Part shown: positions 29,061 through 58,261 of the stretch, in pieces
How the letters are laid out: every line of letters starts with the position of its first letter
How positions within the stretch are numbered: the stretch's first letter is position 1
Origin: Acidobacteriota bacterium
GTDB taxonomy: Bacteria; Acidobacteriota; UBA6911
NCBI GenBank assembly: GCA_963664705.1
Contig: OY761556.1
Span: 5,696,001 to 5,760,000 of the forward strand
Direction of reading: 5' to 3'
Length of the DNA stretch: 64,000 nt
Translations under genes and position numbers: made by a program
The notes under the pieces: generated by a model
Told to the model about the DNA's origin: nothing
What the model saw: only the letters and a program-made list of their open reading frames with translations
The model's database searches: none

Positions 29061-29331
29061 TAGGAGATTGATAATACCAATTCATAAATGCAACGTAGTT
29101 ACTGGGATTACGTTATTCTAATCGGTTATAAGATAATAAACCTGAAACTTTTGGTTGAATTTCACAGGGTTTCCCAATGCTAAAGCCCTCTTATCCCCCA
29201 GAGCGCCTAGAATAGCCCTGCCGCGAAGTAGCAATAATTTCAATCCGTAGAGGCTCCACTACCCTTGGGGCGGAGGTTTGGTCGTACCCCCCAGGCGCCA
29301 GAATTGAAAACCTGGAGAGCTTATAACTGTT

Positions 29332-29565
29332 ATATGGCAGCCGCGGAGAACCTGTTTGGATGACTTAGTGCTGCTCGCTTCAATTCATCAGCCAATTCCA
29401 AACACCGTTGTTGGGCGTCAGGGAAAGCCTGATCTGGTACCTAGGCCTATATTGTTGCGGATGATCCACAAATTGGAATGCCATCATTACAATGCCTTCG
29501 GCAACCGATTCTGTATTCCATTCGGTTACGGGCTGCAAAAACGAAAGATCATTCGTATCTGTCAT
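29332..29565 (-). pseudogene. small frameshifted gene, weakly BssS-like
   Basis: strong RBS AAGGAG before ATG 29565; a frameshift near 29410 continues as CLELADELKRAA. Confidence 0.3.
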
Positions 29566-29938
29566 TGCTACTCTCCTTAAACTTGGGGGGGCGCAGATTG
29601 CGGAATCGTATTCAAAATATTGCATAATTCTAATTCAAACCAGCTATGAGATCTACATTTTTGGTGTTTAAATAATTCAGAGAAACTTGACCGCGAGTCA
29701 CAGAGCTCGCTTTGTCCGGGGACGAGACAGATTTCGACAGAAATCCCCAAAATTATATCGGAAACTTGATCGCAGCTTGCCTACGAATTGGTTTAGGACT
29801 TTGGATTTATAAAATAGACAGTTATTTGATATATCGGCAAACCTATTTCGAAGACATATATTCGAGTCGCGGTCTTGGTCGAACTAGAATGATACCGTAT
29901 GAGCGGCTGACGATTTGAATACCATTTCAATGAATGGC

Positions 29939-30245
29939 TTATTTCGCCTGATCCCATTGCTCCAGCTTTAACTTAATAAGATCTGAGCCTCCTTAGAGAA
30001 AGGAATCCAAGGCTCGACTCAACTTATCCAAACGTACGTCTATTTCAAGTTGCCTACCGGCTTCTGTAATTCGTTTCGTATCTTCGTGAATTTCTAGATC
30101 GTAGTCGTCATGCCCAACTTTATAGGGCTGTCGCATATTCGACATATTTAACCTTTTTCCCCTATCCCATGGTTGGATAACATCGCATAATGCCGAAAAG
30201 TTTGCGAAAGGTTCGCGTTGCACGCTTTGTCGGGCATGAATACCT
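29939..30245 (-). pseudogene. C-terminal remnant of an HD-family phosphohydrolase
   Basis: REPFANFSALCDVIQPWDR parallels ENPLGALLILCDEMQEWGR of the 35328..37514 protein; boundaries approximate. Confidence 0.45.
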
Positions 30246-30590
30246 GTTGGTGCCTCTCTGATTCAACGTTAGATGATCAAATGTCCGATAATGCAGAATT
30301 CGCCAAGAAGAATGTTAAGCAGGTTAGCGGGTTAAGGCCAAAATTCCACTAAATGATGGATTGTTAAATTGACTTAAAGGTCAGCCGGGTCTTTCTAAAC
30401 TCGGTTTCTGTGCCAAAATAATCTTGCTTTCTATTGCGGATTGGCTGATCATCATACCAATCCAAGTTATAGATTCAGTCTCCCGATAGCACAACTTTTC
30501 TAGCAGTGAAGTTCTTCACATTTTACCTCGACTAGACTAGCTAGTGCTAGTTGACATTATAAGGCCGCGGGACGAAGGAGTGACCTCATC

Positions 30591-31382
30591 GTGACTGAAT
30601 TGCAGCAGCCATCGGCAATGGATCTCGTATCGATGGAATCGTTGCCGCCCACTTTGGAAGCAGCGGCAGCGGCACGGCTCGCCAGCGTCGCGGGCGGGAT
30701 TGGCGCGTATGAACTGAATATCAAGCCGCGGCGCGTAATCAACCAGGGCGACTTACCGTGCTGCGTTTCGTGTGCGCTGACGGCGGCTCTGGAAGCGCTC
30801 AATTTCGATTGCCCAGTATTGGCGCCGATGTTCCACTACTTCGTCACACGTTACGAACAGGCAGGCGGGGCTAATGCCGACGGATTCCTGTTTCTCGATA
30901 GCGGCATTTCAACCATCCAGGGTGTTGGTGTCTGTAAGCAGTCCCTGTATCTGGAGACAAACCGTTTGCCATCGACTACCGACCGACCGCCGCAAGCTGC
31001 GTTCGACGATGCGGAAGCGCGAAAGCTGTCGTCGTTCGGCTTTTCGCGCGTGCAGGAGATCAACGCGATATCGCGCAGCGTTGTAATCAAGGAGCGGTTG
31101 CGCGCGGATTATCCAGTGGTGGTCGGATTTACGTTGCCGATGGAATATCCCGCAAAGATTGACACCGAGAAGCGATGGATGGATCCGGAGGGATTTACGG
31201 CTTCCTCCATCGGGCACTGTGTGTTGCTCGTTGGGTACGATGACCTACAGGGCGGCGGATCCGGCGCCGTCCGAGTGCAGGACAGCCGCGGCATGCAGTT
31301 CGCAGACGGCGGGTGCTGGTGGATGGGATATCGGGTTCTGGACAGCGCATTTGTGCAGGCTGCTGTGTATCTCACGCGTTGA
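30591..31382 (+). CDS. papain-like cysteine peptidase (C1 family)
   Basis: NQGDLPCCVSCA (Q...C), GHCVLLVGYDD (H), VQDSRG (usual N replaced by D), GCWWMGY; RBS AAGGAG. Confidence 0.85.
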   Translation: MTELQQPSAMDLVSMESLPPTLEAAAAARLASVAGGIGAYELNIKPRRVINQGDLPCCVSCALTAALEALNFDCPVLAPMFHYFVTRYEQAGGANADGFLFLDSGISTIQGVGVCKQSLYLETNRLPSTTDRPPQAAFDDAEARKLSSFGFSRVQEINAISRSVVIKERLRADYPVVVGFTLPMEYPAKIDTEKRWMDPEGFTASSIGHCVLLVGYDDLQGGGSGAVRVQDSRGMQFADGGCWWMGYRVLDSAFVQAAVYLTR

Positions 31383-31393
31383 AAGGAGCGGTG

Positions 31394-33031
31394 ATGAGGA
31401 AGAAAGGATTGCTGCTATTGCTGGCAGTGGTGGCGCTTGGGGGCTGCGCCAAGATCAAGGTTGTGAAGCTGACACCAGGATTGCCGAAGCCGCCGAGCGC
31501 GAATGGTCTGTTTTATGCGTTGCCGAAGACGATCATGCGCGTGGCTCTGACGGTCGAACAGACGAAGCGCACAGGTGCGCCATTCATTGATTTTGCGCCG
31601 ATCTTCGTTCCCGGCGCCGATGTCGCATGTGAGACGCCAAACTGCGCGAGCGAGAAGATGAAGATATTTGCGTTGAAAAAGGGCGTGACGCTAACGACGT
31701 TTGGCACACCAGACCCGGAGCAGGTCTACATGGTGAATTTCGTGGGGGGCGGCGTGCAAGACCAATCGCTGAGCCTGGCGTGGACCGACACAGGAATTCT
31801 ATCATCGGTGAGTACTTCGGTGACAAACAGGACGACGGACATTGCGGTCTCTCTGGCGAAGCTGAGTGCGGGAGTAGCTTCGAGAGCTGCATTTGGTGCG
31901 GCGAAAGCAGTTGCCATACCCGGTACAGCGACCGCATGTGGAGAGTCCTCTTCCAGGGATCCAGTCTATCTGCCGATCTTGTACGTTCCGTCGATGCTCT
32001 CAAAGCCGGATCAGCCGCCGGCTCCGAATGCTGTGCCCGAATTGGCAGCGAGTTACTGTGCGATCCCGAAAGATGACCGCGAGAAGCTTCCAAATACCGA
32101 AGATGACCTCAATCGGTTGAGAGGCGCCGTCCGTGAATATCTTCAGCAAGTCAAGGATCTGGTAGATGCGCGGAATAACATCCTGTCAGGAACAAGGCAG
32201 GTATTCGAGCCGGTAGAACTCGTGGGTAAGCTGGACGCGATGATCCTAACGCGGTTGAAGGGTCTGTTCCTGGGCTCGGAAAAAACCACGCCGTGGAATA
32301 TCACGATTGACGTGGAACCGCCTGCCGGAGCGCCAGGAATGGTGGAGTTGCTCAAGATCGATCCCGAGAAGGGCGTTTGCGTTGACAACACGAGCCTAGC
32401 ACCTATGTCTGATACTGCGCCGGAAAAGTTCCCGACACTGACGAATGCGCAATGCGTCAATGGGAAACCGGTCACGCTTAAGCTGGCATACTATCCCGCC
32501 GCCGCCCAGCAACTCTTTAACGTGATGAAAACCCGCACAACCGTCCCCACTGATGAGCGGAGCTTCTATTACCGCATCCCGGCGCAAGTGACGGGAGAAG
32601 TCTTCTACATGCAGGCGCTCGAAAAGAAAGGTGCCACAGAGAACGCCTTGCCCGTGGAAGTCTCTTATGGCAAGGCTGTATTAACGGTAGCGCAGTACGG
32701 CGAGATCGCTTCCCTGCCGGCGAAACGCAACAGCAAAACCTTAAGCTATGACTTGGGGATGGTGGAAGCGACGGGCGCGCTGAAGAGCTTCAAGCTCGGT
32801 GTGACCGGCGGAATCGACAGCGCCACCATAGACGCGTTCGCAGGAGCATCCAATGATCTGCTAGATGCACGTAATAAGGCCGAGAAAGCCTCCAAGGAAC
32901 AGCGCCAAAAAGACGAAGAAGCGCAGAGTGAGCTGAACCAACTGAAGAAGCAGGCTGACATCCTTGATCAGCAAGACAAGATCTGCACTCTGCAAACCAA
33001 GTACGGGCTCCCTTGCACCACCAAACCGTGA
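31394..33031 (+). CDS. lipoprotein, DUF4831-like
   Basis: MRKKGLLLLLAVVALGG-C lipobox after AAGGAG; GLFYALPKT, YYRIPA, AQYG motifs; C-terminal coiled coil. Confidence 0.7.
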   Translation: MRKKGLLLLLAVVALGGCAKIKVVKLTPGLPKPPSANGLFYALPKTIMRVALTVEQTKRTGAPFIDFAPIFVPGADVACETPNCASEKMKIFALKKGVTLTTFGTPDPEQVYMVNFVGGGVQDQSLSLAWTDTGILSSVSTSVTNRTTDIAVSLAKLSAGVASRAAFGAAKAVAIPGTATACGESSSRDPVYLPILYVPSMLSKPDQPPAPNAVPELAASYCAIPKDDREKLPNTEDDLNRLRGAVREYLQQVKDLVDARNNILSGTRQVFEPVELVGKLDAMILTRLKGLFLGSEKTTPWNITIDVEPPAGAPGMVELLKIDPEKGVCVDNTSLAPMSDTAPEKFPTLTNAQCVNGKPVTLKLAYYPAAAQQLFNVMKTRTTVPTDERSFYYRIPAQVTGEVFYMQALEKKGATENALPVEVSYGKAVLTVAQYGEIASLPAKRNSKTLSYDLGMVEATGALKSFKLGVTGGIDSATIDAFAGASNDLLDARNKAEKASKEQRQKDEEAQSELNQLKKQADILDQQDKICTLQTKYGLPCTTKP

Positions 33032-33040
33032 GGAAGTGAC

Positions 33041-34120
33041 ATGGCTGATACGAATGAATTGGCAGCCCGTCCGTTGGAGGGAAAAGCGACGGCGGATGTG
33101 CAACGGCGCTTCGAGCCGGACCTGCTGAGCTATCGTAGCGCTGCAGCTTTGGCTGCAGCGCTGGCGAACAAAGTGAAAGACAAGGTTGTCGGGCACGAGG
33201 TCGTCATCGCAGATATGGCGGTGCTCGTCGACTTTGCTAATTTGGAGGCTCTGTATGTTGAGCTGGACGAAATGGCAAATGACTTCACCGCACTTGCCGA
33301 TCTCGCCGATGCGGCAGTTCAGCGGCGTAGAGCGGCGACGCCGCCCACAAAAGGAGCGGTCGTTAGCCTGGAGACATTCGCGCCTTTAGTAGCGGTAACG
33401 GAGGCGACGCCCGCCTTAGCCGCGTTGTCGACCGGCGTTAGCACGGCGCTCGGACTAGTAAGCCTGTTCCGGCAAGATGTCGAATTCGGCGGACGCCAGA
33501 CGACCGTCGATCCCTTGACGTTTGAACTGGCGCTCGCGGGCGCCTTGATCGACAAGGGCGCGAAGCGTGTTGTTGCCGTGGATTTCGAAGTCGCGGCAGC
33601 GAGCAATTCTGCACAATCATTACGCGGCCGGCTGCATGCTGTACACACGGCGCGTGCCAAGGCGTGGACGGCCGTTGCACCGCTTGTCACCACCGTGGCG
33701 AAGTTCGAAGTGGAACTCGACCAAGCAAGCCGCGCAAAGAAGCAGGATGAGGTGAACCGGCTGACCGGAGATTTGGCGCAACTGCGACGCGAAGTGCAGC
33801 CGCTCGCCGATCCCATGTCGCGGCTGGATTCACGCTTGAGCGACCTGGAAAAGAAAGCTATGTCCGTAGACGAGAAAACGGGAATTTCATTGTTCGCACG
33901 CTGGATGAGAGCTGAAGCGATTCGGGAGCGAAACCCTATTTATTTGCATGCGACAGTGGCGTCTTCCGGCGGGGGATTTCAAGTAGCCCGCAGTCTCTGG
34001 CGCACCAAAGCAAAGGTGAAGTCCAGCGGAGGCGTCGTGGTGCGCTGGGCATTGCTTGCAACCAGCGGGGAGATTGCCAATGCCGGCATGCTGGATGCGA
34101 CTGAAGAGTTAGAGATGTAA
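33041..34120 (+). CDS. hypothetical protein (coiled coil plus Gly-rich C-terminal beta region)
   Basis: 359-aa ORF 9 bp after the lipoprotein stop, RBS GAGG. Confidence 0.8.
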   Translation: MADTNELAARPLEGKATADVQRRFEPDLLSYRSAAALAAALANKVKDKVVGHEVVIADMAVLVDFANLEALYVELDEMANDFTALADLADAAVQRRRAATPPTKGAVVSLETFAPLVAVTEATPALAALSTGVSTALGLVSLFRQDVEFGGRQTTVDPLTFELALAGALIDKGAKRVVAVDFEVAAASNSAQSLRGRLHAVHTARAKAWTAVAPLVTTVAKFEVELDQASRAKKQDEVNRLTGDLAQLRREVQPLADPMSRLDSRLSDLEKKAMSVDEKTGISLFARWMRAEAIRERNPIYLHATVASSGGGFQVARSLWRTKAKVKSSGGVVVRWALLATSGEIANAGMLDATEELEM

Positions 34121-34426
34121 GCGGAGTCTTGACGAGATCGGCTGGCCGGGTGCGATATCATGCACGTAAGCGCTTGTAAATCATTGAGAGAGAAGGACAG
34201 GTCATTATCAAGGTGAGTTCATAACCCCAGGTTCAAATTTGAAATTTGTCCACAAAAGCGGCGCTAAAATGATGTCCATTACACCGGGTATTCAAGCCTA
34301 GTTTTTGCCAAAAGTCGGCAGTTTTGAAATTCAACAAAAGGATAGATTGTAAAATATCGTCAGTAGTCAGCGTATATGAATTCGATCCTGATGACATACC
34401 TGATTGCGGATGATTGCAGGAAACGG

Positions 34427-35317
34427 TCAGGCGCGCATCATGGCGTCTTGGATCTGCTTCGCATGCCAGGTTTCTCCAATACCGAATAATAAGGATGCCT
34501 CCGGGAAAGCAGTTTTGGCAAATGCAATTAAATCCTTGATGGAATCATTGGGTCCAGCACCACGGAGTATGTTGAAGACGCCCAATATGCGTTGTGTACT
34601 CGCAACCTGCAACACTCGATCATGGCTGAAGAAGGCTGTGTATTTTCCAAAAGGGATAAAGTGACCAATAATAGGTAACACGCCTAATGCGGGTAGTACC
34701 TCCTCGGTGAAATGAGAAATGCAGATTACTGGTAAAATTGCTGATGCATATTCAAACATCTCATTTAGAATCTCAAAGCGGCCGAGTAGGACAAGCAAAT
34801 CGGCGTAATCTGCTCCAATCATGAATGCATCAGCTAACGGCGCCATTTCAAACAAGCGTTTTGTAAAGCGCTCTTTGTTCAAGCATATAGAAGAAATTTC
34901 TCGTTGGGTTAATGAACATTGTAATGAGTGGCTTCCTGTCCAGCAATGCCGTCTTTCCGGCGCAAGCGGACTCTGGCAAATACGATCAACCATGTGCATC
35001 TTGCGTTCCATAATTGCTGAATACAAACGGTCCCTACTGTGTATAGCTTCGCGCCCTTCGATTTCAACCCCACAACCCCAACTCGGATTTGCCAGCACAA
35101 CGAGGCTTTTGCCGTAAGATGCACGCAATGTGCGAATTGCAGTGACCAATGGAGGATGGAATGAGAAATCGACGGCCTCGAAGCCGGCTTGAATGCTCGC
35201 CTCCAGAATCTTTAGGATTTCCGAATCATCATACATTCTGGAAGGCTCCACAGTCGGCAAAAATGGAACAAATGCATCGGTTCCAATTATGTTACGCGGA
35301 AGGTTAAGGCAGCCCAT
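34427..35317 (-). CDS. hypothetical protein, possible aldo/keto-reductase-like TIM barrel
   Basis: LPRNIIGTDAF...ILKILEASIQAGFEAVD resembles the AKR N-terminus; RBS GGAGG, 10 bp after the upstream stop. Confidence 0.55.
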   Translation of the reverse strand: MGCLNLPRNIIGTDAFVPFLPTVEPSRMYDDSEILKILEASIQAGFEAVDFSFHPPLVTAIRTLRASYGKSLVVLANPSWGCGVEIEGREAIHSRDRLYSAIMERKMHMVDRICQSPLAPERRHCWTGSHSLQCSLTQREISSICLNKERFTKRLFEMAPLADAFMIGADYADLLVLLGRFEILNEMFEYASAILPVICISHFTEEVLPALGVLPIIGHFIPFGKYTAFFSHDRVLQVASTQRILGVFNILRGAGPNDSIKDLIAFAKTAFPEASLLFGIGETWHAKQIQDAMMRA

Positions 35318-35327
35318 ACGGCCTCCA

Positions 35328-37514
35328 CTACTCTAATGAAACACTCATGCCTTGGATGCCAACAGAAAATTCGAAACGCTTTGGAAATGGAATACCCGAA
35401 AACGATAGTCGCTTCAAATTCTGGGCTTTACCGTGGGAAAATACGTCAAAGTTCCAATCATAAAAACTTTTGTCCGCGCTGTGAATATATTCAAACTTGC
35501 ATCTGATAGATTCATCATCGAGGACATTCCCTTCTACGGGACCAAAAAGCATGTCGCTAATCATTGTCTCGTAACCCTTTGGGCCGAGACATGTTCTGCC
35601 CCATTCCTGCATCTCGTCGCATAATATCAGTAACGCACCAAGTGGATTCTCAGTGAATCGAAGAGGAATCGCTGAACGATTTCCAGATATTGTATCAGTG
35701 GCAGATTCTAGGTTGTGAAGCAAGATTGCGCGGGCGGCTTCAAAGAGAATCTTCTCTTGAGTTACTGCCTTTCCGGTAGGCGGATATAATATTGAGGCTG
35801 TATCGAGGAGGTTGAGAGCACTAAGTGCACCGTGATCGTATAACAACTCAAGCGATGTATGTCCAAATCCTTTGTTGGCCAACTCAGCAGGAAAATAGCG
35901 CTGTAAGAGAACCCATATTTCGTTATTGTTGACAGGATTGTCATTAGGCCCGAGAGGAGGAGTTACAATCTTGCGTAGCCTCAATCCCAAAATTTTTCCG
36001 ATGGCATTCTCAACGGCGTCAAAGATACTAGTGGCTGAAGTCCCGAAATGAGTCGAGATTGCATTTAGCCGTGGCGCATGGTTTAGCGCAAACGATACTG
36101 GATAGCAGTGATCATGTAATAACGCGGTATAGGTCCAAGCAGCGTGTACCGCACCGTTCATATCTGGCCAATGTAAGGTATTAGCTACATGTTTCGAAAG
36201 TGGTACGCCATCTCTCATATTAAGTTGGAGAAGGACTAGACCCGCATAGAGCACATTAACGACATGGATATGATGATCTCTGTAACGCTTCGATGTGAAA
36301 TAGCTAAGTACATCGATATCTCGAGACTCATGGGTTAAATCGGCTGCCTTCGTAAAAACGTCATTTTTTGAAGTGGGGATGTGCTTTTTGGTTTCATTGA
36401 GCGCTGCGTCCTGCAATTCAAAATAGAGATCTCGATATTTGAGAGGTTCAGAGCCCACATCGTCGGGAATAGCCCTCTGCGGCATCTGGTAATGACTCCG
36501 CAGAAACTCCATGCATCTGGCAGAACTGAACTCGATGTACGATCCACGGGATTTATTATTCGCATGGGTTCGAGCAAGGCGAAAGGGTTCAAGGGCTCCA
36601 TGAACTGCCTCTGCAATAGCATATGTAAAAGACGGGTGATCAATGTCATCAGGAGTAAGTTGATGTGATTCTCTTATATCATGGGCACCAATTTTGAGTA
36701 TAGGATAGGAACTCAGTATGATGTCTATGAGTGCTTTACACAATGTGGGACCGCTGTGACGCTGAGACTTTGCCAAAGCCTCTTGAATGTCTTTTGCCGT
36801 TGCCGTAATAAGGATTGCTCCTGCACTGTCGTTAGTCATGTACTCTTGGCCATAAGTGTTGGGCACATTTGAAACAAATTTGTATTTCGGCGGGTGACGA
36901 TTGATAAAAGCCACAAGGGCATTGGATAGCTTGTATCTGTAATCGTGGCGCTCCCCAGATATAATGATATGGTCCTTTCCCTGTGACGTTCCTAGCATCG
37001 CAATTATTGCAGTGTTATGCATGGCCATCTCTTCAAAAATTTTGGCTCTCTTCCCCTCTTTGGCGAGAAAGGGTAATAGGGCTTCAACTATTAAAGCGAC
37101 GCGCTCAGGACCGCAGTCTAGGGCTGCGGATAATTCACTGACTAATGCCTTTGTACCTGATGGTGTTATTTGACCTGATGGAACAACGCGAGCAAGGCGA
37201 TCATAAAGTAATTCAAGTTCTGTGAGAAATGGAAGACAGGCTGTGTCTGTAGCGAGTTCTGCTCCGTCTTTTACCTCAAGCGTTATTCCGAGTTGCGATG
37301 CAAAGAATTGTTCAAAGAATAGTTTATACACCCGTGTATTCTTGGGAGACAATCCGCTTCTAGTCCCGTATTGCTGTCGCTCATTAAAAACAATCGTTAA
37401 AGATCCAGGTTTCCCCAAAAGAAGCTTTTTGATCTGCAGAAGTAGCGCAACATGCCCCAAATGAAGCTCATCGAGATCATTGCCGTTAACTGCCCAGAAA
37501 GAATAAACGTTCAT
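35328..37514 (-). CDS. fusion of a divergent TyrRS-like (class Ic aaRS) domain and an HD phosphohydrolase
   Basis: LHLGH..LQIKK, ISGERH, GQEYMTND (KMSKS position), HP...AIAEAVHGALEPFR; then YRDHHIH, LLHD, DHG, LHN, LCDEMQEWGR. Confidence 0.75.
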   Translation of the reverse strand: MNVYSFWAVNGNDLDELHLGHVALLLQIKKLLLGKPGSLTIVFNERQQYGTRSGLSPKNTRVYKLFFEQFFASQLGITLEVKDGAELATDTACLPFLTELELLYDRLARVVPSGQITPSGTKALVSELSAALDCGPERVALIVEALLPFLAKEGKRAKIFEEMAMHNTAIIAMLGTSQGKDHIIISGERHDYRYKLSNALVAFINRHPPKYKFVSNVPNTYGQEYMTNDSAGAILITATAKDIQEALAKSQRHSGPTLCKALIDIILSSYPILKIGAHDIRESHQLTPDDIDHPSFTYAIAEAVHGALEPFRLARTHANNKSRGSYIEFSSARCMEFLRSHYQMPQRAIPDDVGSEPLKYRDLYFELQDAALNETKKHIPTSKNDVFTKAADLTHESRDIDVLSYFTSKRYRDHHIHVVNVLYAGLVLLQLNMRDGVPLSKHVANTLHWPDMNGAVHAAWTYTALLHDHCYPVSFALNHAPRLNAISTHFGTSATSIFDAVENAIGKILGLRLRKIVTPPLGPNDNPVNNNEIWVLLQRYFPAELANKGFGHTSLELLYDHGALSALNLLDTASILYPPTGKAVTQEKILFEAARAILLHNLESATDTISGNRSAIPLRFTENPLGALLILCDEMQEWGRTCLGPKGYETMISDMLFGPVEGNVLDDESIRCKFEYIHSADKSFYDWNFDVFSHGKAQNLKRLSFSGIPFPKRFEFSVGIQGMSVSLE

Positions 37515-38042
37515 ATAGATTCGCTCCGTGTTCGTTCTAGCGCCAAACCTTCCCAAAGTCCGTTAAGTGTTTCTGTGTGATTTGGCGCAGGAGAGACTGC
37601 GTTGAGGGTTAGATGTCGGCACACCCCCTGCGCACTCAATCACGATGGTAATACGTGTAGAAAATACGATTTTCGGATGCCCGAGTATGCTCTGTTGTCA
37701 TTCCGGTAGCAAGTCCTAAATGGATAAAAAATAGATACCAATGGTTGCATTGAGAATGCATTAGGTCGCGCTGCGGCTTGCTGTTACGGGCGATAAGAAA
37801 TATCTAACCAGAATCGATTGGCACACGGTCTGGGTACGTTCGGCAAGACGAGACTCTCAGATATCCAGTAGTAAATTGAGATATAGGATGCAAATTTGAG
37901 AATTTTGAGCTCTAATGGATGATACAAAGTTCGCATTGTTTGCACGAACTAATTGCGATGAAATTTTGCTCAGTACAATATAAACCGAACCGCTCGACTA
38001 ACAAGATGCAGCTTTTGTTTACCCACTTCAAGGAGCTATAAA

Positions 38043-40469
38043 GTGTATAAAAGCACTTGGTTGGCGTGCCAACTTATGGACATTGTCTGCGGCTTGTCTA
38101 GGACTCAGGATCCGCACCCAGGTTACCACACAATCGCTCGGGAAATGGGGCGGTATTGGAAGTTACATCAGGTTTTCCTATTGGTCCGTCGTTTTTACTC
38201 GGGGTGGCGAAGGAATGAACTGAGTTTCTGGGTATACGCAGGCGGTGAAATACTTGAACGCTATCACGGGAATAGGCCCAGTGCGATTGTGGAAATCGCA
38301 TTGACCCAAAGTCATCTTCTAAGTCGACTTGATAGTGTGCAATTAGTGGGAATGAGGCTCGACGAGGACCCCTTTCTCAAGCAGCAATTGTATATGGCAT
38401 GTGCGCCAGCGGCCGATCTCACAGACGAAGTGCAGGGAATACGAATCGACGAACAAGGATATACCATTGGATTCCTGCTTGTCCCGAAAGGTGCTTCCAA
38501 CGTTCTGTTGACAGAGGATACAGAGATCCTTAAACGTTCAGTTAGGCTGGCTTTTGAAAGGACATCCAGCGCTTATGCGGAAAATGAACAGCTTTGCAAT
38601 TCCCTTTCGGCAATTGCTGGGCAACTCTTCAGAAACTGCAGCGATACATCTTCACTCGAATTTGGCAGCAGCCGCGAGCCAAGAAGTGATGACGTCCTCC
38701 AGGAATTCCTTGATTACACGCGTACTACGATGAAAGCGCAAAGGTGTGCGCTGTTTCTGGTGGATGAGCGAGAGAATAGTCTTACTTTGGAACGCATTTC
38801 CGAGCAAACTGATAGCGAAAACAAGCTCCATTACGAGGAGATACCGCATATACCTTCATATGATCTTGTGAATTACAGTTCAGAAAAGCGAGGACAAGGA
38901 GTGACTCCTTGGGTTCTCTACCGTAAGGAGCCATTCAATGCGCGTAGCTATGAAGAGTTGATAAGCAATTCCGAAGGCCATCATAAAGGAAATTGGGATG
39001 ATCTCATTTATGGCGGCAAAGACAAGGCGAGAAACGACTTCAAGTGTGTCTATATGACACCACTCCTTGCTGGCGCTAAGGCTATTGGCGTCCTTAAGTG
39101 CGAGAATCGCACGCTTGAGGCGCCCTATCCATTTTTCGATCAGACAGATGAGCGCCAAATCAATAGTTTGGCGGGCGTTCTTGTGAACCTTGTTGTATCT
39201 CAACGCATTGAACGCAGGCGCTACGACAGAGCCTTACCAGCCATATCTGAAATCCTTCTGAGGGATTTCGGTCAATCCCAATTGTTCAAAAGCCTTTTGA
39301 GTGAATGCCGCAGCCGGCTACACGCCGATCTCTGCTCGCTGTTCGTCACAAGCGGTGGCGATCTTGTTTTGCGCGCCATTGTGGGGTTGGACAAAGACAA
39401 AGAGGCACGCCTCCTTGACTTCCGGTATGAAAACTACCGGACTTCCGATGGACTTACGTGCTTGGTCCTCAGACAACACAAGTCATTTAATATGCGATCT
39501 TATAAAGATCTAGCTGATCGTGCAGAACGCAAAGGCCCGGGCAAGTGGGACGACATCGTCTATGATGGAAATGCAGCCGTGATGTTCAAATCGCTTTATT
39601 CTATTCCACTCCGGATTGGCGAGGAGGATGTTGGTGTATTGAAAGTTGAGAACAAGAACGTTGCGCCCTTTTACTTCACAGAGAGCGATGAGCGCCTATT
39701 TGATTTGATCGGACGGCTCATTGCGATCGGCGTCAAATATGATAACGAGGCTTATCTAGGACTTATGCTGCGGGCGGCCGAAATGGGATTCCTTGCCTCC
39801 GGAATTGCCCACGAATTCAACACATATTTGCAAAGTATTCAAGGTATCTCAGACGTGATTGGGTTGGATGCCGAGGGGAATATCCGTCGGCAAGTCAACA
39901 AATTATCGCGGCAGATCAAATTAGCGGCGAAGACGATTGATAATTTTCGTATGATTCGAGATCGCAAGCAAGAGGTGGAAACTTTTCCTATCGACCAACG
40001 TGTAGACGAGATTGTCAAGATCGTTGATGAACGTTTTCGAAACAACCAGATTGAGCTGGAATATCAGAAAAATCACTTCGAAGTCACGATGAATTCAAGC
40101 GAATTTCAGACCATACTCATCAACCTATTGCGCAATGCGCACGACGCTATTGTCGAAACGAAGCGTCCGGGCAAAGTATATTTGGCTGTCAGGGAGAGTG
40201 GAGAGGGCCGATTCATAATCGAAGTGGCTGATACCGGTACAGGATTTGACCGTGACAAGATGCAATATCTCGGTGCTCCTTATTATACAACCAAGAGTGC
40301 TGCCGGTGGGACGGGAATGGGGTTATTCTGGATCTACCGAATCGTGGAGCGAAATAGGGGTGAGATTGATCCTGTTGCGAATAATCAATTCGGAGGGGCG
40401 ACGATTCGAGTCACACTTCCCAAACACTGCGGGGCAAACGACCACGCAAATCCTGGAGGTAAGCGATGA
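38043..40469 (+). CDS. cytoplasmic sensor histidine kinase with two GAF domains
   Basis: H-box GIAHEFN, N-box NLLRNAHDA, G1 DTGTG, YYTTK, G2 GTGMGL; two homologous GAF repeats; RBS AGGAG. Confidence 0.9.
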   Translation: MYKSTWLACQLMDIVCGLSRTQDPHPGYHTIAREMGRYWKLHQVFLLVRRFYSGWRRNELSFWVYAGGEILERYHGNRPSAIVEIALTQSHLLSRLDSVQLVGMRLDEDPFLKQQLYMACAPAADLTDEVQGIRIDEQGYTIGFLLVPKGASNVLLTEDTEILKRSVRLAFERTSSAYAENEQLCNSLSAIAGQLFRNCSDTSSLEFGSSREPRSDDVLQEFLDYTRTTMKAQRCALFLVDERENSLTLERISEQTDSENKLHYEEIPHIPSYDLVNYSSEKRGQGVTPWVLYRKEPFNARSYEELISNSEGHHKGNWDDLIYGGKDKARNDFKCVYMTPLLAGAKAIGVLKCENRTLEAPYPFFDQTDERQINSLAGVLVNLVVSQRIERRRYDRALPAISEILLRDFGQSQLFKSLLSECRSRLHADLCSLFVTSGGDLVLRAIVGLDKDKEARLLDFRYENYRTSDGLTCLVLRQHKSFNMRSYKDLADRAERKGPGKWDDIVYDGNAAVMFKSLYSIPLRIGEEDVGVLKVENKNVAPFYFTESDERLFDLIGRLIAIGVKYDNEAYLGLMLRAAEMGFLASGIAHEFNTYLQSIQGISDVIGLDAEGNIRRQVNKLSRQIKLAAKTIDNFRMIRDRKQEVETFPIDQRVDEIVKIVDERFRNNQIELEYQKNHFEVTMNSSEFQTILINLLRNAHDAIVETKRPGKVYLAVRESGEGRFIIEVADTGTGFDRDKMQYLGAPYYTTKSAAGGTGMGLFWIYRIVERNRGEIDPVANNQFGGATIRVTLPKHCGANDHANPGGKR

Positions 40470-42070
40470 GTGAATCGGCTCCCACAATCCTAATTGTCGA
40501 TGATGATGAGGTTATTCGAGATAGCTTTTGCGAGTATTTTTCCAGGCTTGGTTGGAGTGCCAATGGAGCAGCGGACGGGGAAGCCGCTCTTCAGTTATTG
40601 CGTACAAGAAATTGGATATGCGATTGCATTGTGCTCGACAAAAGGATGCCCAAAATGGACGGGCTGACCTTTCTGGAAACACTGCGACGAGAAGAAGCTC
40701 GAAATCCTCGTATACCAGTTATCGTTCTGAGTGCATATGTTGAAAAGGACGCCGACAAAGCAAGCTTCGAGGAGGGTGGCGTTGCTTTTGTGTTTGGGAA
40801 GCCGCAGCCTTGGGATCTTATGGAGGCCGCCGCTAATGCTATTACTTCCTCAAGAACCAAGGCTCAACAAGCGCAAGAGGTCGAGCATGCCATGTCAGTG
40901 CATGCGATCGACAAGGTAGTGCGCCAACATGAGGATCTTATTGAGGAATACTTTGAGACGAAGAGCAGTGAATGCAGCATGGCTTTCCACCAGATAGAAG
41001 AGCCGCTTCTTGTTGTGGCCAGACGATGGAATTCTTGGTATCCGAGTTTCTTTAACGTGGCCGGTGGAGCATACGCTATTGTATTTCCAAAATATAATGC
41101 AATGGATCCCAGAAATCGTGTTGTCCTTATCGACCCAGGATTTCGGTCGCTGGAGATCCTTTCCGGGATCGGGCTGTCGGTTCAGGATATGGAAACATGC
41201 GTAGTCACTCACAACCATCCTGATCACCTGGGAGGGGTATTTGAATACATCGCCTGCCGCAACCAAGCCGGTCTCCCAACGGCGTTTTCATGTAATCCTT
41301 CAACGAGACGGATACTTGGCGAATTGGCGAACAGGAACCTTATAGCAAGGGAATTGCCTGACCAAGGGAAGAAGGACATATTGTTGGATTCTTACCTCGA
41401 TTTCATGGGGAGATATCGGTCCCTTGAAGTTGGAGCTTTTGCAACGGATCACCATGAGATCGGTTGGGATGATGATGCCCGAGGTTTGATTCTCACAGCA
41501 AATTCAGGGGATGGTGACGGTGCACTCGGGTGGGATCATTCTTGTCGGGCGGTAATCTTGGGTGACACTGCATTCGTCCCCGTCAGTCCATCGAGAAACA
41601 TCCCTGCATTTTTCTACGGAGACGATAATACCAAAATTGCTGTCCTTCACATTGGTAGTTCCCAGCTAAAGCGGCGAGTTGGAGGACACCTGTATCTCAC
41701 GGGATTATTGCGGCTACTCGTTGCTCTTGCACAGGGCCTTGACGATCGAGATCACGATAGGAAAAATAAGCTTGTTGTACTCATTTCAGAATGGGGCTTG
41801 GAACATGCCACGGCCCAGCAAATAAAAGCGATCTGCCCGGCTGTCAGCGGCTTCGATGATTCAAGCGCTATTGTTGCGACGATATCAGTGCTGCGGAACG
41901 CTCTAAAAGACATGGGCTACGATCGTTTAACGATATTACCCGCCGATATCGGGCTCATGGTCGGCATGGAAAGCGGACAAATATATTTGAAGGACGGAAA
42001 TCGCTTCCAGACAAAGTCGCCAGATAAGGTAAGTTTCGTGCCCGGTCTCGATGGTTTGGAATATTCCTGA
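40466..42070 (+). CDS. response regulator receiver fused to a metallo-beta-lactamase-fold hydrolase
   Basis: ILIVDDD, VLDKRMPKMDG, LSA, KP; RRWNSWYP, IDPG, THNHPDH, TDHHE, LGDT; ATGA overlap with the kinase. Confidence 0.85.
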   Translation: MSESAPTILIVDDDEVIRDSFCEYFSRLGWSANGAADGEAALQLLRTRNWICDCIVLDKRMPKMDGLTFLETLRREEARNPRIPVIVLSAYVEKDADKASFEEGGVAFVFGKPQPWDLMEAAANAITSSRTKAQQAQEVEHAMSVHAIDKVVRQHEDLIEEYFETKSSECSMAFHQIEEPLLVVARRWNSWYPSFFNVAGGAYAIVFPKYNAMDPRNRVVLIDPGFRSLEILSGIGLSVQDMETCVVTHNHPDHLGGVFEYIACRNQAGLPTAFSCNPSTRRILGELANRNLIARELPDQGKKDILLDSYLDFMGRYRSLEVGAFATDHHEIGWDDDARGLILTANSGDGDGALGWDHSCRAVILGDTAFVPVSPSRNIPAFFYGDDNTKIAVLHIGSSQLKRRVGGHLYLTGLLRLLVALAQGLDDRDHDRKNKLVVLISEWGLEHATAQQIKAICPAVSGFDDSSAIVATISVLRNALKDMGYDRLTILPADIGLMVGMESGQIYLKDGNRFQTKSPDKVSFVPGLDGLEYS

Positions 42071-42438
42071 CAGCATGCCTCTCAGTGCATGTAGTTCGAG
42101 ATTATCTGTTTTATTCAGGCTTGGAGAGGTATCCAACTGCAAGTTTTGCGTTATTTTATCACTCAAATTTTGCGATATTAAAGCGGAACGGAGCAAAACT
42201 CAGCAGTGCAGGGCTGTTCGGAAAATAGACTTTTTGAAACATTTCCCTTGTAGCGAAAAAAATTTGCAGTTGTCCCGATCGTGGTTGGGTCCCCCTAAAC
42301 GGGAAGGGGCCCCAAGGGTCAGACCCTACTGGGGGGGGTGCGCCTGGGGTGCGGAAGTTGCAGAATTTTGCCGCTCTGTGCCGGGTTGTGCCGGGTAGAA
42401 GTCCTTTAAATTCAATGATGCCAATACTTGATTGAAAA

Positions 42439-42483
42439 CTGGCAGTCAGGAGGTCACGAGTTCGATCCTCGTCAGCTCCACCA
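42439..42483 (+). repeat. att site 1: 3' half of tRNA-Ala(GGC)
   Basis: CTGGCAGTCAGGAGGTCACGAGTTCGATCCTCGTCAGCTCCACCA: anticodon loop GGC, T-arm GTTCGA, CCA end; no 5' half upstream. Confidence 0.9.
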
Positions 42484-42570: not shown

Positions 42571-42815
42571 TCAGGCTGTTTTGTCAGCCTTTTCCGGTTC
42601 TGCCGCCAGCGCTTTCCCAAGCGCCTCGACAGCCGTTTGTTTGTGATCCGGTGATAGGTGCGTGTATCTGAGAGTCATTGAGATGCTCTTGTGTCGGAGG
42701 ATCTCTTTGACAGTGGCAAGATTCACTCCTGCCATTACGAGATAAGACGCGGCCGTGTGCCTCAGCGTGTGGAAGGTAACCCTCTCCAGTTTGGCGTTCG
42801 CGTGAACGTGGTGAA
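42571..42815 (-). pseudogene. tyrosine integrase, C-terminal fragment
   Basis: FHTLRHTAAS..LRHKSISMTLRYTHL; N-terminal domains absent. Confidence 0.85.
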
Positions 42816-42930
42816 CGCCCCGATTTTTACCGAAATATTTATCATTCAGGTAGACGATTCCGCTGCGTTTGCGTACTTGGAGTATGGAAGGACAATAAGA
42901 ATTGGTGCGGCAATTCGCGGGAGTTGACGA

Positions 42931-45900
42931 ATGCATCACACAGTCAGGAGATTCGGTGCGTTATTTTTTATTTTGATTGCGTCGCGCTTTGGCCATTCAT
43001 GGACCGGTAATTGGATCAGTGTGGGACTTACCAGTGACTCAGTGCGGGTTGTTGCCGTAGATCCGATGGATGCGCAGACTGTCTATGTGGGCACCACCCG
43101 CGGTCTTTTCAAGACCACCGACGGCGGAACCAACTGGAGCTCCAAAAGCGTCGGTTCAGGAGATGCGATCACGGGTTCACTGGCAATTGATCCGGTTGTC
43201 CCGCTGACGATCTATGCTGGCACCGACAAAGGACTGTTCAAGAGTATGGATGGCGGCGACAGCTGGCGTGCCCTTGCCGTCGGATCGCTGCCCAACTCCA
43301 CAGCGGAATGCTTGGCGATTGATCCGACCGACCATCGCACTGTATATGCCTATGCGTGGGGGGTGTACAAGAGTTCGGATGCTGGCGAAACCTGGATTTC
43401 ACTCAACCTTTATCCCTCGGTGAGAGTACTGGCAATCAACCCGGCGGATCCGAAGATTTTGTATGCAGGCACCTACTCAGGCGTTTACAAGAGCATTGAT
43501 GGAGGAGGGCATTGGAGTTTCCTATCTTCGACCGCGGGATACGATGCGATGGCCTTGTCCATCGACCCGGCCTCGCCCCAAACCATCTATGCCGCCTTTG
43601 GATCACGGGGAGTGTACAAGAGCACAGACGCGGGCAGTACATGGAATGGCGTTCCCATAATTTCTTACCCCGGCAGCAATTTGACGGCCTATTCGCTGGC
43701 GAGAGACCTGACATCTCCTTCAACCGTTTATGCCGGCACGGACTGGGGAGTAGTAAACGCGGATACGAAGAGTTTTCTAGGGAATCCCAACATGCTTCCG
43801 CGATACGTGGCTTCTCTGGCAATCGGTCCGGTAGGGACTGAAAGCATGTTTGTCGGTACCTCCGACACAGGATTATTTAGATTTACCACTGCATCGCTCC
43901 CATCATCGGAGGTCACGATCGCGACGAAACCGGAGGGTATCCGTTTTACCTTGGACGGGGTCGGGTTTATGAGCAGCCAGGTTCTTTCCTCTGTTATTGG
44001 AACAGGGCATTTTATTGGAACCGACTCGCCGCAAACCCTGAACGGGAGGCGATATCAGTTCTCGGGATGGAGTGACGGGGGCGCTATAACGCACACATTG
44101 ATCACGGGAGCGAGCGCAAAAACCTACACCGCAAACTTTACAGCCGAATATTGGCTGACGCTTCTCGCCGGGTCTTTCGGTTTCATAACCAAGAGCCCGA
44201 CGCCCGCAGATGGGTCCTCCTATTATGCTCCCGGAACTCAGGTGCTGTTGACTGCGGTTCCTATGGCCGGCTATGTCTTTGATGGATGGAGCGGTGATCT
44301 TACGGGATCGACCAATCCACAGTGGGTTACGATGTCGGCGCCGAAAACGATCAGCGCAAAATTTTCCCCGCTTAAAGCTGAAATTAAGATAAATACAAAT
44401 CCTCCAGGGCTGAGTTTTACGGTTGACGGTATAACGTATACCACCGCCCAGACTTTCTCCTGGGAGGTGGGCAGCACTCATTTACTGCGGACAACATCTC
44501 TGCAGGGAACGGGCGGGACGCGCTACGTATTTGGCGATTGGAGTGATGGGAAAAGTCTTGATCACGCGTTAATCGTTCCCTCGGTTTCGACGGCCTACAC
44601 AGCAAATTTTGGGACACAGTATCTACTTATGATGGAAGTCTTGCCAGCCGCAGCCGGGATCGTGAGCATAAGCCCTGCCTCTGCCGATGGGTATTACGAT
44701 GCACTGGCGCTGGTGCGTATGACTGCGACAGCGAACAGCGGCTACCTTTTTGCGGGGTGGAGGGGCGACCTTATCCAGAGTGCGAATCCGCTGGCGCTGA
44801 CGGTGTCTTCGCCTTTGAGTGTGAAGGCGAATTTTGCAGTGCTGAATCCGTCCGGGAGGCTGACAGTTGCCGCTGGGGGATCAGGTATTTCAGCCACTCC
44901 CGGGACGAGTTCGACGACGAGTAGCGGATATGCGCTTGTTTCGGTGGATTCAGGGAGTGTACCGTATGGGACGGCTGTCTTCCGGATGCAGCAAAATGGA
45001 ATCACCGTCAGCGAAGCGGGTGTTCCTGCATCACCTCCTACTACCGCAGCCCGTATTTTCGTGGATTACCGATCCGGTGTGAATGCCGTTCCATCGAATC
45101 CCAGTGTGGGTTCGGTGAATATCAACACTGGCATAGCCGTTATCAACTATGGTCCTGCGTCCGCAAGCATCCTGTACACACTACGGGATTCAAATGGGAT
45201 CGTTGTCGCGGAAGGGCATGGCCCGCTAGGATCCAGGCATAGATTCACGTGTTTCATTGATCAGCTGAGGGATGTGGCGGCTCCGGACTTTAGTCTTCCA
45301 TCCAATTTTGAGGTAGGTTCTCTGGAAATACGATCGGATCAACAGATATCGGTGCTTGCCGTACGGGAGACAGTGAACCAGAGAAACGAATCCTTGATCA
45401 CCACTACGCCTATCGCTGACCTGAACCGCATCGTGCCGGCCGGCCCGATATATTTTCCGCAATTTGCGGATGGTGAGGGATACACAACTTCAATAATTCT
45501 GTTGAATACTTCGAATCAGGTTGAGGCAGGAATACTGCAGATCAGGGACAGAGATGGGAATCCGGTAATAGTGAAACAGGCGGGAGGTGCCGCCGGCTCT
45601 GCATTCAGCTATACGATACCGTCTGGAGGGCTGTACCGATTTCAAAGCGATGGATCCTCGGAGACCATGAAAACCGGATGGATAAGTCTCGCCCCAACCG
45701 AAGGGACACAGTCTCCAATCGGATCGGGAGTGTTCAGCTATAATCCACAGGAGGTAATGGAATCGGAATCAGGGATTCCATCGGCCAACGCAACGACGCA
45801 CGCAAGGGTGTATGTGGATCTTTCAGGACATCACAATACCGGGATCGCGATTGCCAACATTTCAAGTGTTGGTTCCACTGTCGCCATAAAGGCTTATTTG

Positions 45901-46275
45901 GATGACGGGGTCACGGAGGCTGGGACGAGCCGGGAGCCTTTGTCATTATCAGCCCATGGATACAGAGCGGCTTTTGCAGACCAACTAGTCGACGGTTTGC
46001 CGGAAGGGTTCAGGGGAGTATTGGATATCAGTTCCATGCAGCCATTTGCGGCATTGACTGTGCGGTCGCTTACAAATGAGAGGGATGCATTATTGATGAC
46101 GACCTTTCCAGTCGCAGATCTGAGTCAGGCAGCCCCCTCACCTGTGGTGTTTCCGCAGATTGCCGATGGAGGCGGGTATTCGACACAGTTCATTTTTATA
46201 GGAACGATCAGTGCGGCGACAGCCACGCTGACTTACTATGACGGAACCGGATCACAAATCCAATTCGGCAACTGA
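42931..46275 (+). CDS. large secreted protein: BNR/YCF48-like beta-propeller repeats, InlB-B-like repeats, C-terminal beta domains
   Basis: signal peptide; repeated IDPxxxxTxYAGT..G(V/L)(Y/F)KSxDGG..W; GY(V/L)FxGWxGDL..SxNP; YFPQFADG/FPQIADG. Confidence 0.85.
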   Translation: MHHTVRRFGALFFILIASRFGHSWTGNWISVGLTSDSVRVVAVDPMDAQTVYVGTTRGLFKTTDGGTNWSSKSVGSGDAITGSLAIDPVVPLTIYAGTDKGLFKSMDGGDSWRALAVGSLPNSTAECLAIDPTDHRTVYAYAWGVYKSSDAGETWISLNLYPSVRVLAINPADPKILYAGTYSGVYKSIDGGGHWSFLSSTAGYDAMALSIDPASPQTIYAAFGSRGVYKSTDAGSTWNGVPIISYPGSNLTAYSLARDLTSPSTVYAGTDWGVVNADTKSFLGNPNMLPRYVASLAIGPVGTESMFVGTSDTGLFRFTTASLPSSEVTIATKPEGIRFTLDGVGFMSSQVLSSVIGTGHFIGTDSPQTLNGRRYQFSGWSDGGAITHTLITGASAKTYTANFTAEYWLTLLAGSFGFITKSPTPADGSSYYAPGTQVLLTAVPMAGYVFDGWSGDLTGSTNPQWVTMSAPKTISAKFSPLKAEIKINTNPPGLSFTVDGITYTTAQTFSWEVGSTHLLRTTSLQGTGGTRYVFGDWSDGKSLDHALIVPSVSTAYTANFGTQYLLMMEVLPAAAGIVSISPASADGYYDALALVRMTATANSGYLFAGWRGDLIQSANPLALTVSSPLSVKANFAVLNPSGRLTVAAGGSGISATPGTSSTTSSGYALVSVDSGSVPYGTAVFRMQQNGITVSEAGVPASPPTTAARIFVDYRSGVNAVPSNPSVGSVNINTGIAVINYGPASASILYTLRDSNGIVVAEGHGPLGSRHRFTCFIDQLRDVAAPDFSLPSNFEVGSLEIRSDQQISVLAVRETVNQRNESLITTTPIADLNRIVPAGPIYFPQFADGEGYTTSIILLNTSNQVEAGILQIRDRDGNPVIVKQAGGAAGSAFSYTIPSGGLYRFQSDGSSETMKTGWISLAPTEGTQSPIGSGVFSYNPQEVMESESGIPSANATTHARVYVDLSGHHNTGIAIANISSVGSTVAIKAYLDDGVTEAGTSREPLSLSAHGYRAAFADQLVDGLPEGFRGVLDISSMQPFAALTVRSLTNERDALLMTTFPVADLSQAAPSPVVFPQIADGGGYSTQFIFIGTISAATATLTYYDGTGSQIQFGN

Positions 46276-57532: not shown

Positions 57533-58261
57533 ATAAAATCAATAACTTACGACGAATCCACAAATCCCCAAAGGTAACAAAAAGGTAGCAGCGTATGTCC
57601 AGCTAAGGCTGGGGTATTCAGTGGGAGTCTACCCCACCAGAGCAAAAGTCAGAGCTCTGTAGCTTGGATAGCCGGGCGGGAAGGAAACTGAACCCTGGAA
57701 GTCTATCGACAAAGCCATCCTTGGGATGGTGAGCGAGTCATTGGGCCGTAACGAAAGTGAACGCACAGGTGCCCCCGATACTTTATACCTCAGAGGCCGA
57801 GCTCCCGTTGTTAGGGCGAAGGCAGCATGGAACGCCGCCAACTGACCGATGCGGCGGGACACTCTGGCGGGGCGGTAGCGGCAGCACGATGACAAGGATG
57901 CACCGAGCAACTGGAGAAGCCCTCCTCATCCCGTCGCGAAATCGACGGAGCGAGAACCCGTATAACCGGCTAAACCGGGAAGTCGGGGGAAGGATGAGAG
58001 GGTGACGGAAGGGTCCGCAGTAGCGAAGAAGCGGAGTAATGTCCGTGGAGCGAAGGGGCCCTGCTGTTTGTACTGGCACCAACAATATGGGAGGCAAGGG
58101 TGAGATGACAAAGGCACCCAGCAGTTTGCAGGACCTGAGGCGGAGCCTATACGTGAAGGCGAAGGCGGAACCAACCTGGCGTTTCTGGGGACTTAACCAT
58201 GACCCGATTCCGTTGACACACTGAAAAGGGTGGAACATTCTAGTCCACCAGAGGGTGTGTC

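Follow-up and report, generated by a model that had tools for sequence, protein, structure and literature searches.

Four genes in an Acidobacteriota genome, designated here A, B, C, and D, lie side by side in a stretch of 64,000 nucleotides (the window, G000:C1:5696001-5760000, where G000 is the source genome) and very probably represent two modules rather than one system. C and D code for a histidine kinase with two GAF domains and for a receiver (REC) fused to a metallo-beta-lactamase (MBL) domain. B and A, on the other strand, code for a fusion of a tyrosyl-tRNA synthetase (TyrRS)-like domain with an HD domain and for a barrel of the aldo-keto reductase (AKR) type. The first-pass annotation of the window had joined all four into a single nucleotide-signalling circuit. 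Such a circuit was not borne out, as C/D recurs across several phyla without A/B, and A/B recurs as a pair of its own. The two pairs are probably neighbours through accretion of the genomic island in which they stand.

Distribution of the two gene pairs

For C/D, 185,579 species genomes were scanned with two exact family motifs, and the 28 matches gave nine confirmed loci, six with a full-length D gene (L010-L015) and three with remnants. The full-length loci belong to Bacteroidales, Syntrophobacteraceae, Chlorobiaceae, Desulfocapsaceae, and two metagenome-assembled genomes (MAGs) of Acidobacteria. A histidine kinase gene ends directly upstream of D in all six. Three of these kinases are of the GAF-GAF type and 41-45% identical to C (L011, L012, L014), and a further one is truncated where its contig stops. 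PocR and four GAFs were found in the remaining two (L010, L015), that is, in two of the five complete kinases, and the input of the pair is thus exchangeable. The G+C content of the D gene is below that of the locus in four of five loci measured. Because of the patchy loci, the kinase types, and the low G+C content, C/D is regarded as a rare, horizontally spread pair with exchangeable input. A metagenome scan for A/B gave 317 pattern matches and seven loci, of which three are close relatives and four are distant and HD-only. An A-like gene directly follows B in all three close loci, which are on short contigs.

The first-pass annotation proposed co-occurrence of the two pairs elsewhere as a check, and none was found. 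No match to A or B was found in the nine D loci or in eight D-bearing genomes, all MAGs of unstated completeness, which were searched with A and B profiles at E <= 0.01 (G000 served as positive control for the B profile only). No match to C or D was found in the three B/A loci. In L015, tblastn placed a 49-residue match of A within the D gene (E 0.003), which was put down to chance. A search with the MBL part of D (6982 candidates) recognized 95 relatives, so that the family counts 96 proteins with D itself, and the nearest ten are 55-63% identical to it. Three relatives of B are 46-47% identical (7999 candidates scored) and three relatives of A are 38-43% identical (8000 candidates scored). 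Because ten relatives of D at 55-63% have no counterpart among those of A and B, which stop at 47%, the numbers indirectly argue for two modules.

In a FastTree phylogeny of 87 of the 96 D-family proteins (nine with a missing N-terminal motif or of short length were dropped), D of the window is in an 11-member subclade with support 1.0. Among 42 pattern matches of D in viral contigs, one was left (L039), a chance match on the strand opposite to an unrelated ORF (open reading frame); for B, none of 45 viral matches was confirmed, and plasmids gave no match to B or to the MBL part of D. The D MBL profile had no match in 50 other genomes of the order. When the phylum was searched with the whole REC-MBL profile, common receivers dominated the result (matches in 400 of 401 genomes, about three candidates scored in each), which makes this a weak negative; the best non-self match had E 8e-27, and all non-self matches listed are within the receiver part. 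The genomes of this search include three flagged as unpublished (G034, G063, G186), on which no positive claim is based.

Domain composition of the four proteins

Domains of C and D were assigned from Pfam, and those of A and B from predicted structures and motifs. Protein C (positions 38043-40469, forward strand, 808 aa) was recognized in the first-pass annotation as a GAF-GAF kinase, and Pfam agrees with two GAFs, HisKA, and HATPase. It is a soluble protein with an N-terminal region of about 180 aa, followed by the two GAFs, HisKA with H590, and HATPase. GAF1 and GAF2 align in hhalign with a probability of 99.86 and are thus duplicated domains; the N-terminal region does not align with them. 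H590 is invariant in all four kinases compared. The NKFDE motif of GAF2 is complete, with N537, K538, F545, D549, and E550 invariant in the same four kinases. GAF1 retains N, F, D, and E, and its K is replaced by R or C. According to PMC11977230, NKFDE marks GAFs that bind cyclic mononucleotides (cNMP) but makes no contact with the ligand. NKFDE is missing from the final GAF of both PocR-type partner kinases. At E <= 0.01, the tandem-GAF profile matched six of 177,635 solved sequences: four of PDE2A, one of PDE10A, and one PtsP GAF. PDE2A gave the best E value, 6.4e-5, and the alignment is mostly confined to the linker and the parts adjoining it, the end of GAF1 and the beginning of GAF2. C resembles PDE2A and PDE10A in its tandem GAFs with NKFDE complete in GAF2, but differs from them in the histidine kinase output, in R or C for K in GAF1, and in the family-specific inserts GVTPWVL and GxWD.

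Protein D (positions 40466-42070, forward strand, 534 aa) was earlier called a REC-MBL protein, which is confirmed by a Pfam receiver (D58) and by Lactamase_B with 33.4 bits against a cut-off of 22.7. Its conserved motifs are RRWNSWYP, THNHPDH, H329, D367, H395, H408, and SEWGLEHA. The HxHxDH motif (H249, H251, D253, H254) is present in all 96 D-family proteins. The receiver is present in 86, all of which have the phospho-Asp (D58). Most of the ten rows without receiver look like fragments, and two are architectures without REC. P0101 and P0102 are of the same MBL family without REC, the former with a repeat-like C-terminal tail and the latter with a long helical insert. Remnants of the C-terminal part of the MBL gene are on L016:2098-2496, L017:182-580, and L018:2092-2499, from two Terriglobia MAGs; they are 98-99% identical, form ORFs of 119 aa, and adjoin neither a kinase nor a receiver gene.

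When the MBL profile was compared with solved structures, Apyc1 ranked first, second, and fourth (E 6.4e-7, 1.6e-6, and 1.4e-4) and so represents three of the top four matches; the fourth, 7t28, is labelled as a putative hydrolase and is taken by us to be Apyc1. D shares the MBL fold with HxHxDH with Apyc1 and the class II cNMP phosphodiesterases. Unlike Apyc1, it is fused to REC and paired with a kinase, its MBL part is about 360 aa long against about 250 aa, and the position of E74 is shifted or missing. In Apyc1, the catalytic E74 follows the final His of HxHxDH at a distance of five residues (PMC9117128), and with Phe at this position and 17.9 bits on PF23023, where the cut-off is 50, D was not accepted as Apyc1 itself. 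On its sequence, D is likely an MBL-fold hydrolase of a distinct family and a predicted phosphodiesterase.

Neither A nor B could be placed in a family of Pfam or PADLOC (threshold E <= 0.01), no NCBIfam match had an E value below 0.12, and sequence searches against solved structures gave nothing useful (best E 0.26). The longest ORF of gene B is at positions 35328-37556 of the reverse strand, starts with TTG, and codes for 742 aa. The start is more probably ATG at 37514, because relatives P0002 and P0003 begin at that position, and the gene is then 35328..37514 and its product 728 aa long. The AlphaFold2 (AF2) model of B, computed with four sequences in the alignment, has pLDDT 59.7 and pTM 0.57. 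In VIA-align, residues of about 10-337 (in 742-aa numbering) match TyrRS and tryptophanyl-tRNA synthetase (TrpRS), with 1n3l at Z 10.4 and a root mean square deviation (rmsd) of 5.0 over 250 aligned residues; many more TyrRS and TrpRS rows accompany it, and the synthetase-like domain itself is set at about 15-337. Residues of about 345-742 match HD/PDEase structures, with YhaM at Z 11.1 and rmsd 3.8 over 171 aligned residues and phosphodiesterases at Z 8-9. Cyclodipeptide synthases are also among the structural matches (Z 7.5). Foldseek gave nothing at E <= 1e-3, its rows being mostly TyrRS and TrpRS, and ESM Atlas gave no usable match. The TyrRS-like/HD call of the first-pass annotation is upheld by this class Ic fold and HD domain, on a model of modest confidence.

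The HIGH motif of B reads HLGH at 32-35, and HLGH, HIGH, and HLGH in the three full-length sequences. KMSKS is the loop motif of class Ic aminoacyl-tRNA synthetases, and B is without it, as the loop, placed by motif spacing and not by superposition, reads EYMTNDS, KHMQARG, and GYMRARG. The HD motifs are RDH..H431, H481-D482, D574-H575-G576, H614, and D647-E648; the metal ligands H431, H481, D482, and D647 are invariant in four of four sequences, but B has no Pfam HD score. Among the relatives, the HD half is more conserved (51-57%) than the synthetase-like half (38-40%). B thus resembles TyrRS, TrpRS, and the cyclodipeptide synthases derived from them (PMC2922099) in a Rossmann plus helical domain at Z 8-10 and in HIGH as in class Ic. 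It differs from TyrRS and TrpRS in the missing KMSKS, in no score for PF00579, and in the HD fusion, and was not assigned to either of them. PF00579 is matched by three genes elsewhere in G000. These code for ordinary synthetases of class Ic, and the housekeeping enzyme is therefore not B. NadD-YqeK and RelA/SpoT are known cases of a nucleotide-transfer domain paired with HD.

A distant paralogue of the B HD domain, 761 aa long, with no Pfam family and with another N-terminal domain, is coded at G000:C1:6317373-6325509 (L049) in a cassette with a periplasmic binding protein, the HD protein, a B12 radical SAM (S-adenosylmethionine) protein, and ABC-transporter-like genes. Cassettes of this type are common to G024 (C106, C166), a genome of the same genus, and adjoin BrxB-like genes. 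On metagenome contigs L007:4236-6036 and L008:1942-4053, the HD clade is represented by a stand-alone protein, whose gene comes after those for a DeoR-type sensor and, as read by eye, glucose-6-phosphate isomerase.

Gene A is an intact ORF at positions 34427-35317 of the reverse strand and codes for 296 aa. Its AF2 model has pLDDT 86.7, and the best Foldseek rows are AKRs (E 1.3e-6). In VIA-align, A and 4exa have Z 16.7 and rmsd 3.3 over 223 aligned residues, and other TIM barrels follow from Z 13.9 down. SmbA with ppGpp (6gtm) has Z 15.8 and rmsd 3.6 over 215 aligned residues, within one Z unit of the best AKR. In ESM Atlas, unnamed clusters scored 0.91 and an AKR cluster 0.84, which was used as a lead only. 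The AKR-like call of the first-pass annotation is upheld, A being modelled as an AKR-type (beta/alpha)8 barrel. The catalytic tetrad of AKRs is Asp-Tyr-Lys-His, and its positions in A were placed by strand order. Asp or Glu is retained in the A family, the Tyr position holds His or Tyr, the Lys position holds Asn in four of four, and the His position Gly in five of five. With Asn and Gly at the usual Lys and His positions, A was not accepted as a canonical AKR, and on its model it is likely a non-canonical or non-catalytic nucleotide-binding protein. SmbA of Caulobacter, with a similar AKR-like barrel, is a precedent for a nucleotide-receptor role, although its identity to A is 11% and the likeness is one of fold score. 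As given in PMC9944927, SmbA is a TIM barrel that binds ppGpp and c-di-GMP, is very distant kin of AKRs, and is reported from prosthecate Caulobacterales only. Locus L003:3003-5066 codes for an A-like barrel and a radical-SAM domain in one fusion protein. The radical-SAM domain scores best on archaeal MoaA (E 8e-27), with viperin at E 1.5e-15 and pVip at 9e-18, all below the NCBIfam cut-offs.

Locus anatomy and island setting

All four genes are intact. Both pairs are tightly coupled, as the first-pass annotation had it: by ORF coordinates, A and B are 10 bp apart, and C and D overlap in ATGA. The divergent spacer, given there as about 530 bp, is 528 bp long (37515-38042) when B starts at ATG 37514. 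It contains no ORF above 53 aa and no informative repeat, and its counts of promoters and terminators are at the level of shuffled sequence (15 vs 13.6 and 10 vs 8.7, respectively). Shine-Dalgarno-like sites precede C and D. The highest 19-residue hydropathy of the four proteins is 1.27-1.47, and therefore no transmembrane helix is present in A-D, as had been noticed before.

The right end of the island is the att site at 42438-42483 (forward strand), a 46-bp copy of the 3' half of tRNA-Ala(GGC). No ORF of at least 120 aa is coded from D to this copy, so that the four genes were correctly described as the last cargo before att. The island is about 51.6 kb long, and its left end is the previous tRNA-Ala copy (G000 5686789). 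An integrase and a primase-like block, read by eye, are in its left part outside the window. The cargo includes type I restriction-modification, PDC-S02, GmrSD, an AbiLi/HEC-like ATPase, and a DUF4011 helicase, the closest of which is 5.4 kb from A. Between these defence genes and A-D, at 30591-34120, is a co-oriented trio coding for a C39-like peptidase, a DUF4831 protein with a lipoprotein-like N-terminus, and a coiled-coil protein. The G+C content of A-D is 0.45-0.49, and that of the DUF4831 and coiled-coil genes on their left is 0.56-0.59. A short-read contig of run X1, which may stem from the source sample, is identical to the window over 29000-42467 (0 differences), so that the A-D junction is not an assembly artefact.

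The tRNA-Ala(GGC) gene and five further 46-bp copies of its 3' half over 169 kb (G000:C1:5584226-5753532) form a tandem array of five islands. Copies inside the window start at 42438, 47871, and 57488. Two near-identical integrases of 404 aa sit left of two copies, and another integrase (48009-49160) and an integrase fragment (42571-42939) are right of two other copies. At 45825-45829, short-read contigs of two runs differ from the window by one base out and one base in within 5 bp; the difference is inside a 1114-aa ORF (42931-46275) and is possibly a small assembly error. At 58255-60676, the gene of an IS3-like transposase overlaps with that of a group II intron reverse transcriptase.

Proposed functions and alternative explanations

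Defence or toxin-antitoxin genes are within 5 kb of D in three of the six full-length loci. In L011, a short pAgo system ends 1.6 kb before the kinase; in L012, PycC and PycTM are 4.4 kb after D, with integrase and insertion sequence (IS)-like genes between; and in L010, the Panacea antitoxin and SoFic are found one on each side. In L013, an integrase fragment read by eye is right after D. The first-pass annotation had named homologues in ordinary metabolic contexts as a point against its reading, and the outcome is divided, with two of the six loci (L014, L015) in such contexts and the three above near defence or toxin-antitoxin genes. By analogy with these settings, a defence role is plausible. 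Pycsar is not an obligate partner, because PycTM was found in two of nine D-bearing genomes against one of 14 in a control, and an obligate link was rejected.

The favoured reading is of two independent mobile pairs back to back, C/D as a kinase acting on a REC-MBL enzyme and A/B as an HD hydrolase with an AKR-fold partner, and its chances are about even. In C/D, the tandem GAFs may bind a cytoplasmic nucleotide, tentatively a cyclic mononucleotide. C would very probably autophosphorylate at H590 and pass the phosphate to D58; this step from kinase to REC-MBL protein, proposed by the first-pass annotation, is in keeping with the conserved pairing and the invariant phospho-Asp in the sequences. 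Phosphorylation of D would then quite probably turn on the MBL domain, with cleavage of a phosphodiester. Its substrate may be a cNMP, somewhat doubtfully, or, with less probability, RNA or tRNA. The relay from C to D rests on established two-component biology; the ligand, the substrate, and the defence role are what we infer beyond it. Because of the GAF and MBL profile matches, the most coherent reading is one in which a sensor of cNMP controls a cNMP phosphodiesterase, though it is far from shown. The logic of the GAF-activated phosphodiesterases PDE2 and PDE10 would be recast here as a phosphorelay. That C/D acts in or on phage defence is put slightly below an even chance.

Detocs is the nearest known arrangement, with a sensor kinase, a response regulator with enzymatic output, conserved His and Asp, and swappable effectors; unlike C/D, it has three genes including the stand-alone receiver DtcB (bioRxiv 10.1101/2023.01.24.525353, main text). 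C/D likely operates in a similar manner, with new parts. The effectors given there are PNP, REase, TOPRIM, TM, and alpha/beta hydrolase; the word 'lactamase' occurs 0 times in this main text, and an MBL could be listed in supplementary Table S5. The C/D sensor also differs from that of Detocs in its tandem GAFs. Among ORFs of at least 50 aa at 29-48 kb of the window and in L010-L015, a REC profile found only D and a 261-aa regulator on the opposite strand (L015). With no stand-alone receiver and with MBL not among the main-text effectors, C/D was not accepted as a member of Detocs. PADLOC gave no Dtc-named match, in a library whose content of Detocs models was not established.

In A/B, the HD domain is the candidate catalytic core, a predicted nucleotide hydrolase. 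The N-terminal domain of B may bind ATP or a tRNA end and gate the HD domain instead of charging tRNA, and A could be a sensor of bound nucleotide or an accessory subunit in the manner of SmbA, an analogy as tentative as the gating. The pair would serve a nucleotide-turnover or nucleotide-modifying pathway, at which the MoaA/viperin-like radical-SAM fusion to A in L003 may hint.

Several observations weigh against the favoured reading. The match to PDE2A, at E 6e-5, is a weak one and falls for the most part on the linker between the GAFs, and the Apyc1 match covers the first MBL motifs only and reaches 17.9 bits on PF23023 (Apyc1), where 50 is required. The position of the catalytic E74 holds Phe in 86 of 96 proteins, with Glu one residue later in 94 of 96, and RNase Z models give the highest scores for the two most distant members (P0101, P0102). 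Ordinary metabolic genes surround two of the six loci (L014, L015), the count of defence neighbours stands without a background rate, and PycTM is in only two of nine D genomes, G000 not among them. The B model has pLDDT 59.7, and Z of 10-11 is middling for helical proteins. As to the separation of the pairs, the eight D genomes, as MAGs, are of unstated completeness, a positive control was available for the B profile but not for that of A, upstream DNA is present in only one of the three B/A loci (L003, 808 bp), and the other ten members of the 11-member D subclade are without readable context.

These ten members, at the same time, leave room for one circuit of all four genes, confined to the nearest D subclade. 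B would make or remove a nucleotide or tRNA-linked signal, A bind it, the GAFs of C read it, and phosphorylated D be the anti-phage effector. As an immune circuit, the synthetase-derived domain would sense tRNA or ATP status in infection, HD would set the level of a new messenger, the dead AKR would buffer it, the GAF kinase would read it, and phosphorylation would unleash the MBL. The divergent layout about the 528-bp spacer, the G+C content of 0.45-0.49 in A-D against 0.56-0.59 in the two genes to the left, and the prediction of all four proteins as nucleotide handlers are in its favour. Both the general and the immune form are nevertheless highly improbable, with no co-occurrence in nine D loci, eight D genomes, and three B/A loci, with kinases 41-45% identical to C standing without A/B (L011, L012, L014), and with no A/B relative above 47% although ten D relatives have 55-63%.

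If C/D is a pair of its own, it could still be a Detocs-like abortive system in which the MBL is a phage-triggered toxic nuclease of tRNA or RNA, similar to RNase Z, and not a quencher of a signal. The architecture of a kinase acting on a REC enzyme is as in Detocs, RNase Z is the best NCBIfam match of P0101 and P0102 (MBL without REC), P0101 weakly matches the anti-phage GapS6b model, and three of six loci have defence neighbours. But a stand-alone receiver (DtcB) is next to no locus, Apyc1 ranks above RNase Z for the family profile, and two of six loci are ordinary, which leaves this explanation rather unlikely. That C/D is a two-component system of ordinary metabolism or stress, with enzymatic output, carried passively on mobile DNA and with no phage link, is unlikely too, if a shade less so. 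L014 and L015 stand among metabolic genes, kinases of the PocR type (small-molecule sensors) partner D in L010 and L015, and PADLOC models fit C and D only by the common HATPase and REC domains. This is set against a very patchy distribution (the exact-motif scan of 185,579 species genomes yielded nine loci), the G+C content of the D gene below that of the locus in four of five measured, and defence, toxin-antitoxin, or integrase neighbours in four of six loci and in the window. A/B, for its part, could be the remnant of a small-molecule biosynthetic cassette in which amino acid activation or transfer falls to the synthetase-like domain, A is a true reductase whose active site is altered, HD takes off a phosphate, and a radical-SAM enzyme tailors the product. 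Radical-SAM genes near the HD clade (fused to A in L003, upstream in L009, and downstream of the paralogue in G000 and G024) fit with it, and so do the cyclodipeptide synthases among the structural matches of B (Z 7.5). No radical-SAM gene is beside A in the window or in L004, B is without KMSKS and A without the Lys and His of AKRs, and the window has no precursor, transporter, or other tailoring genes, so that a remnant is improbable, to much the same degree as a toxic nuclease.

In a literature search that covered few subscription papers, neither gene pair was found described, nor was the synthetase-like/HD fusion of B, and the accessible parts of PMC13092281 and PMC5847659 contain no MBL-receiver system. 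Both modules are rare; they are also small and soluble and should lend themselves to assays. Host Apyc1-like enzymes were raised before as possible regulators of cNMP signalling (PMC9117128). If the favoured reading of two pairs is true, C/D would extend two-component systems with enzyme output, such as Detocs, by a new sensor (NKFDE GAFs) and a new effector family (MBL nearest to Apyc1), and would make testable that bacteria regulate their own cyclic-nucleotide immune signals via host phosphodiesterases. The fusion in B, of a class Ic fold minus KMSKS with HD, would, if so, represent a new route from a translation enzyme to a sensor.

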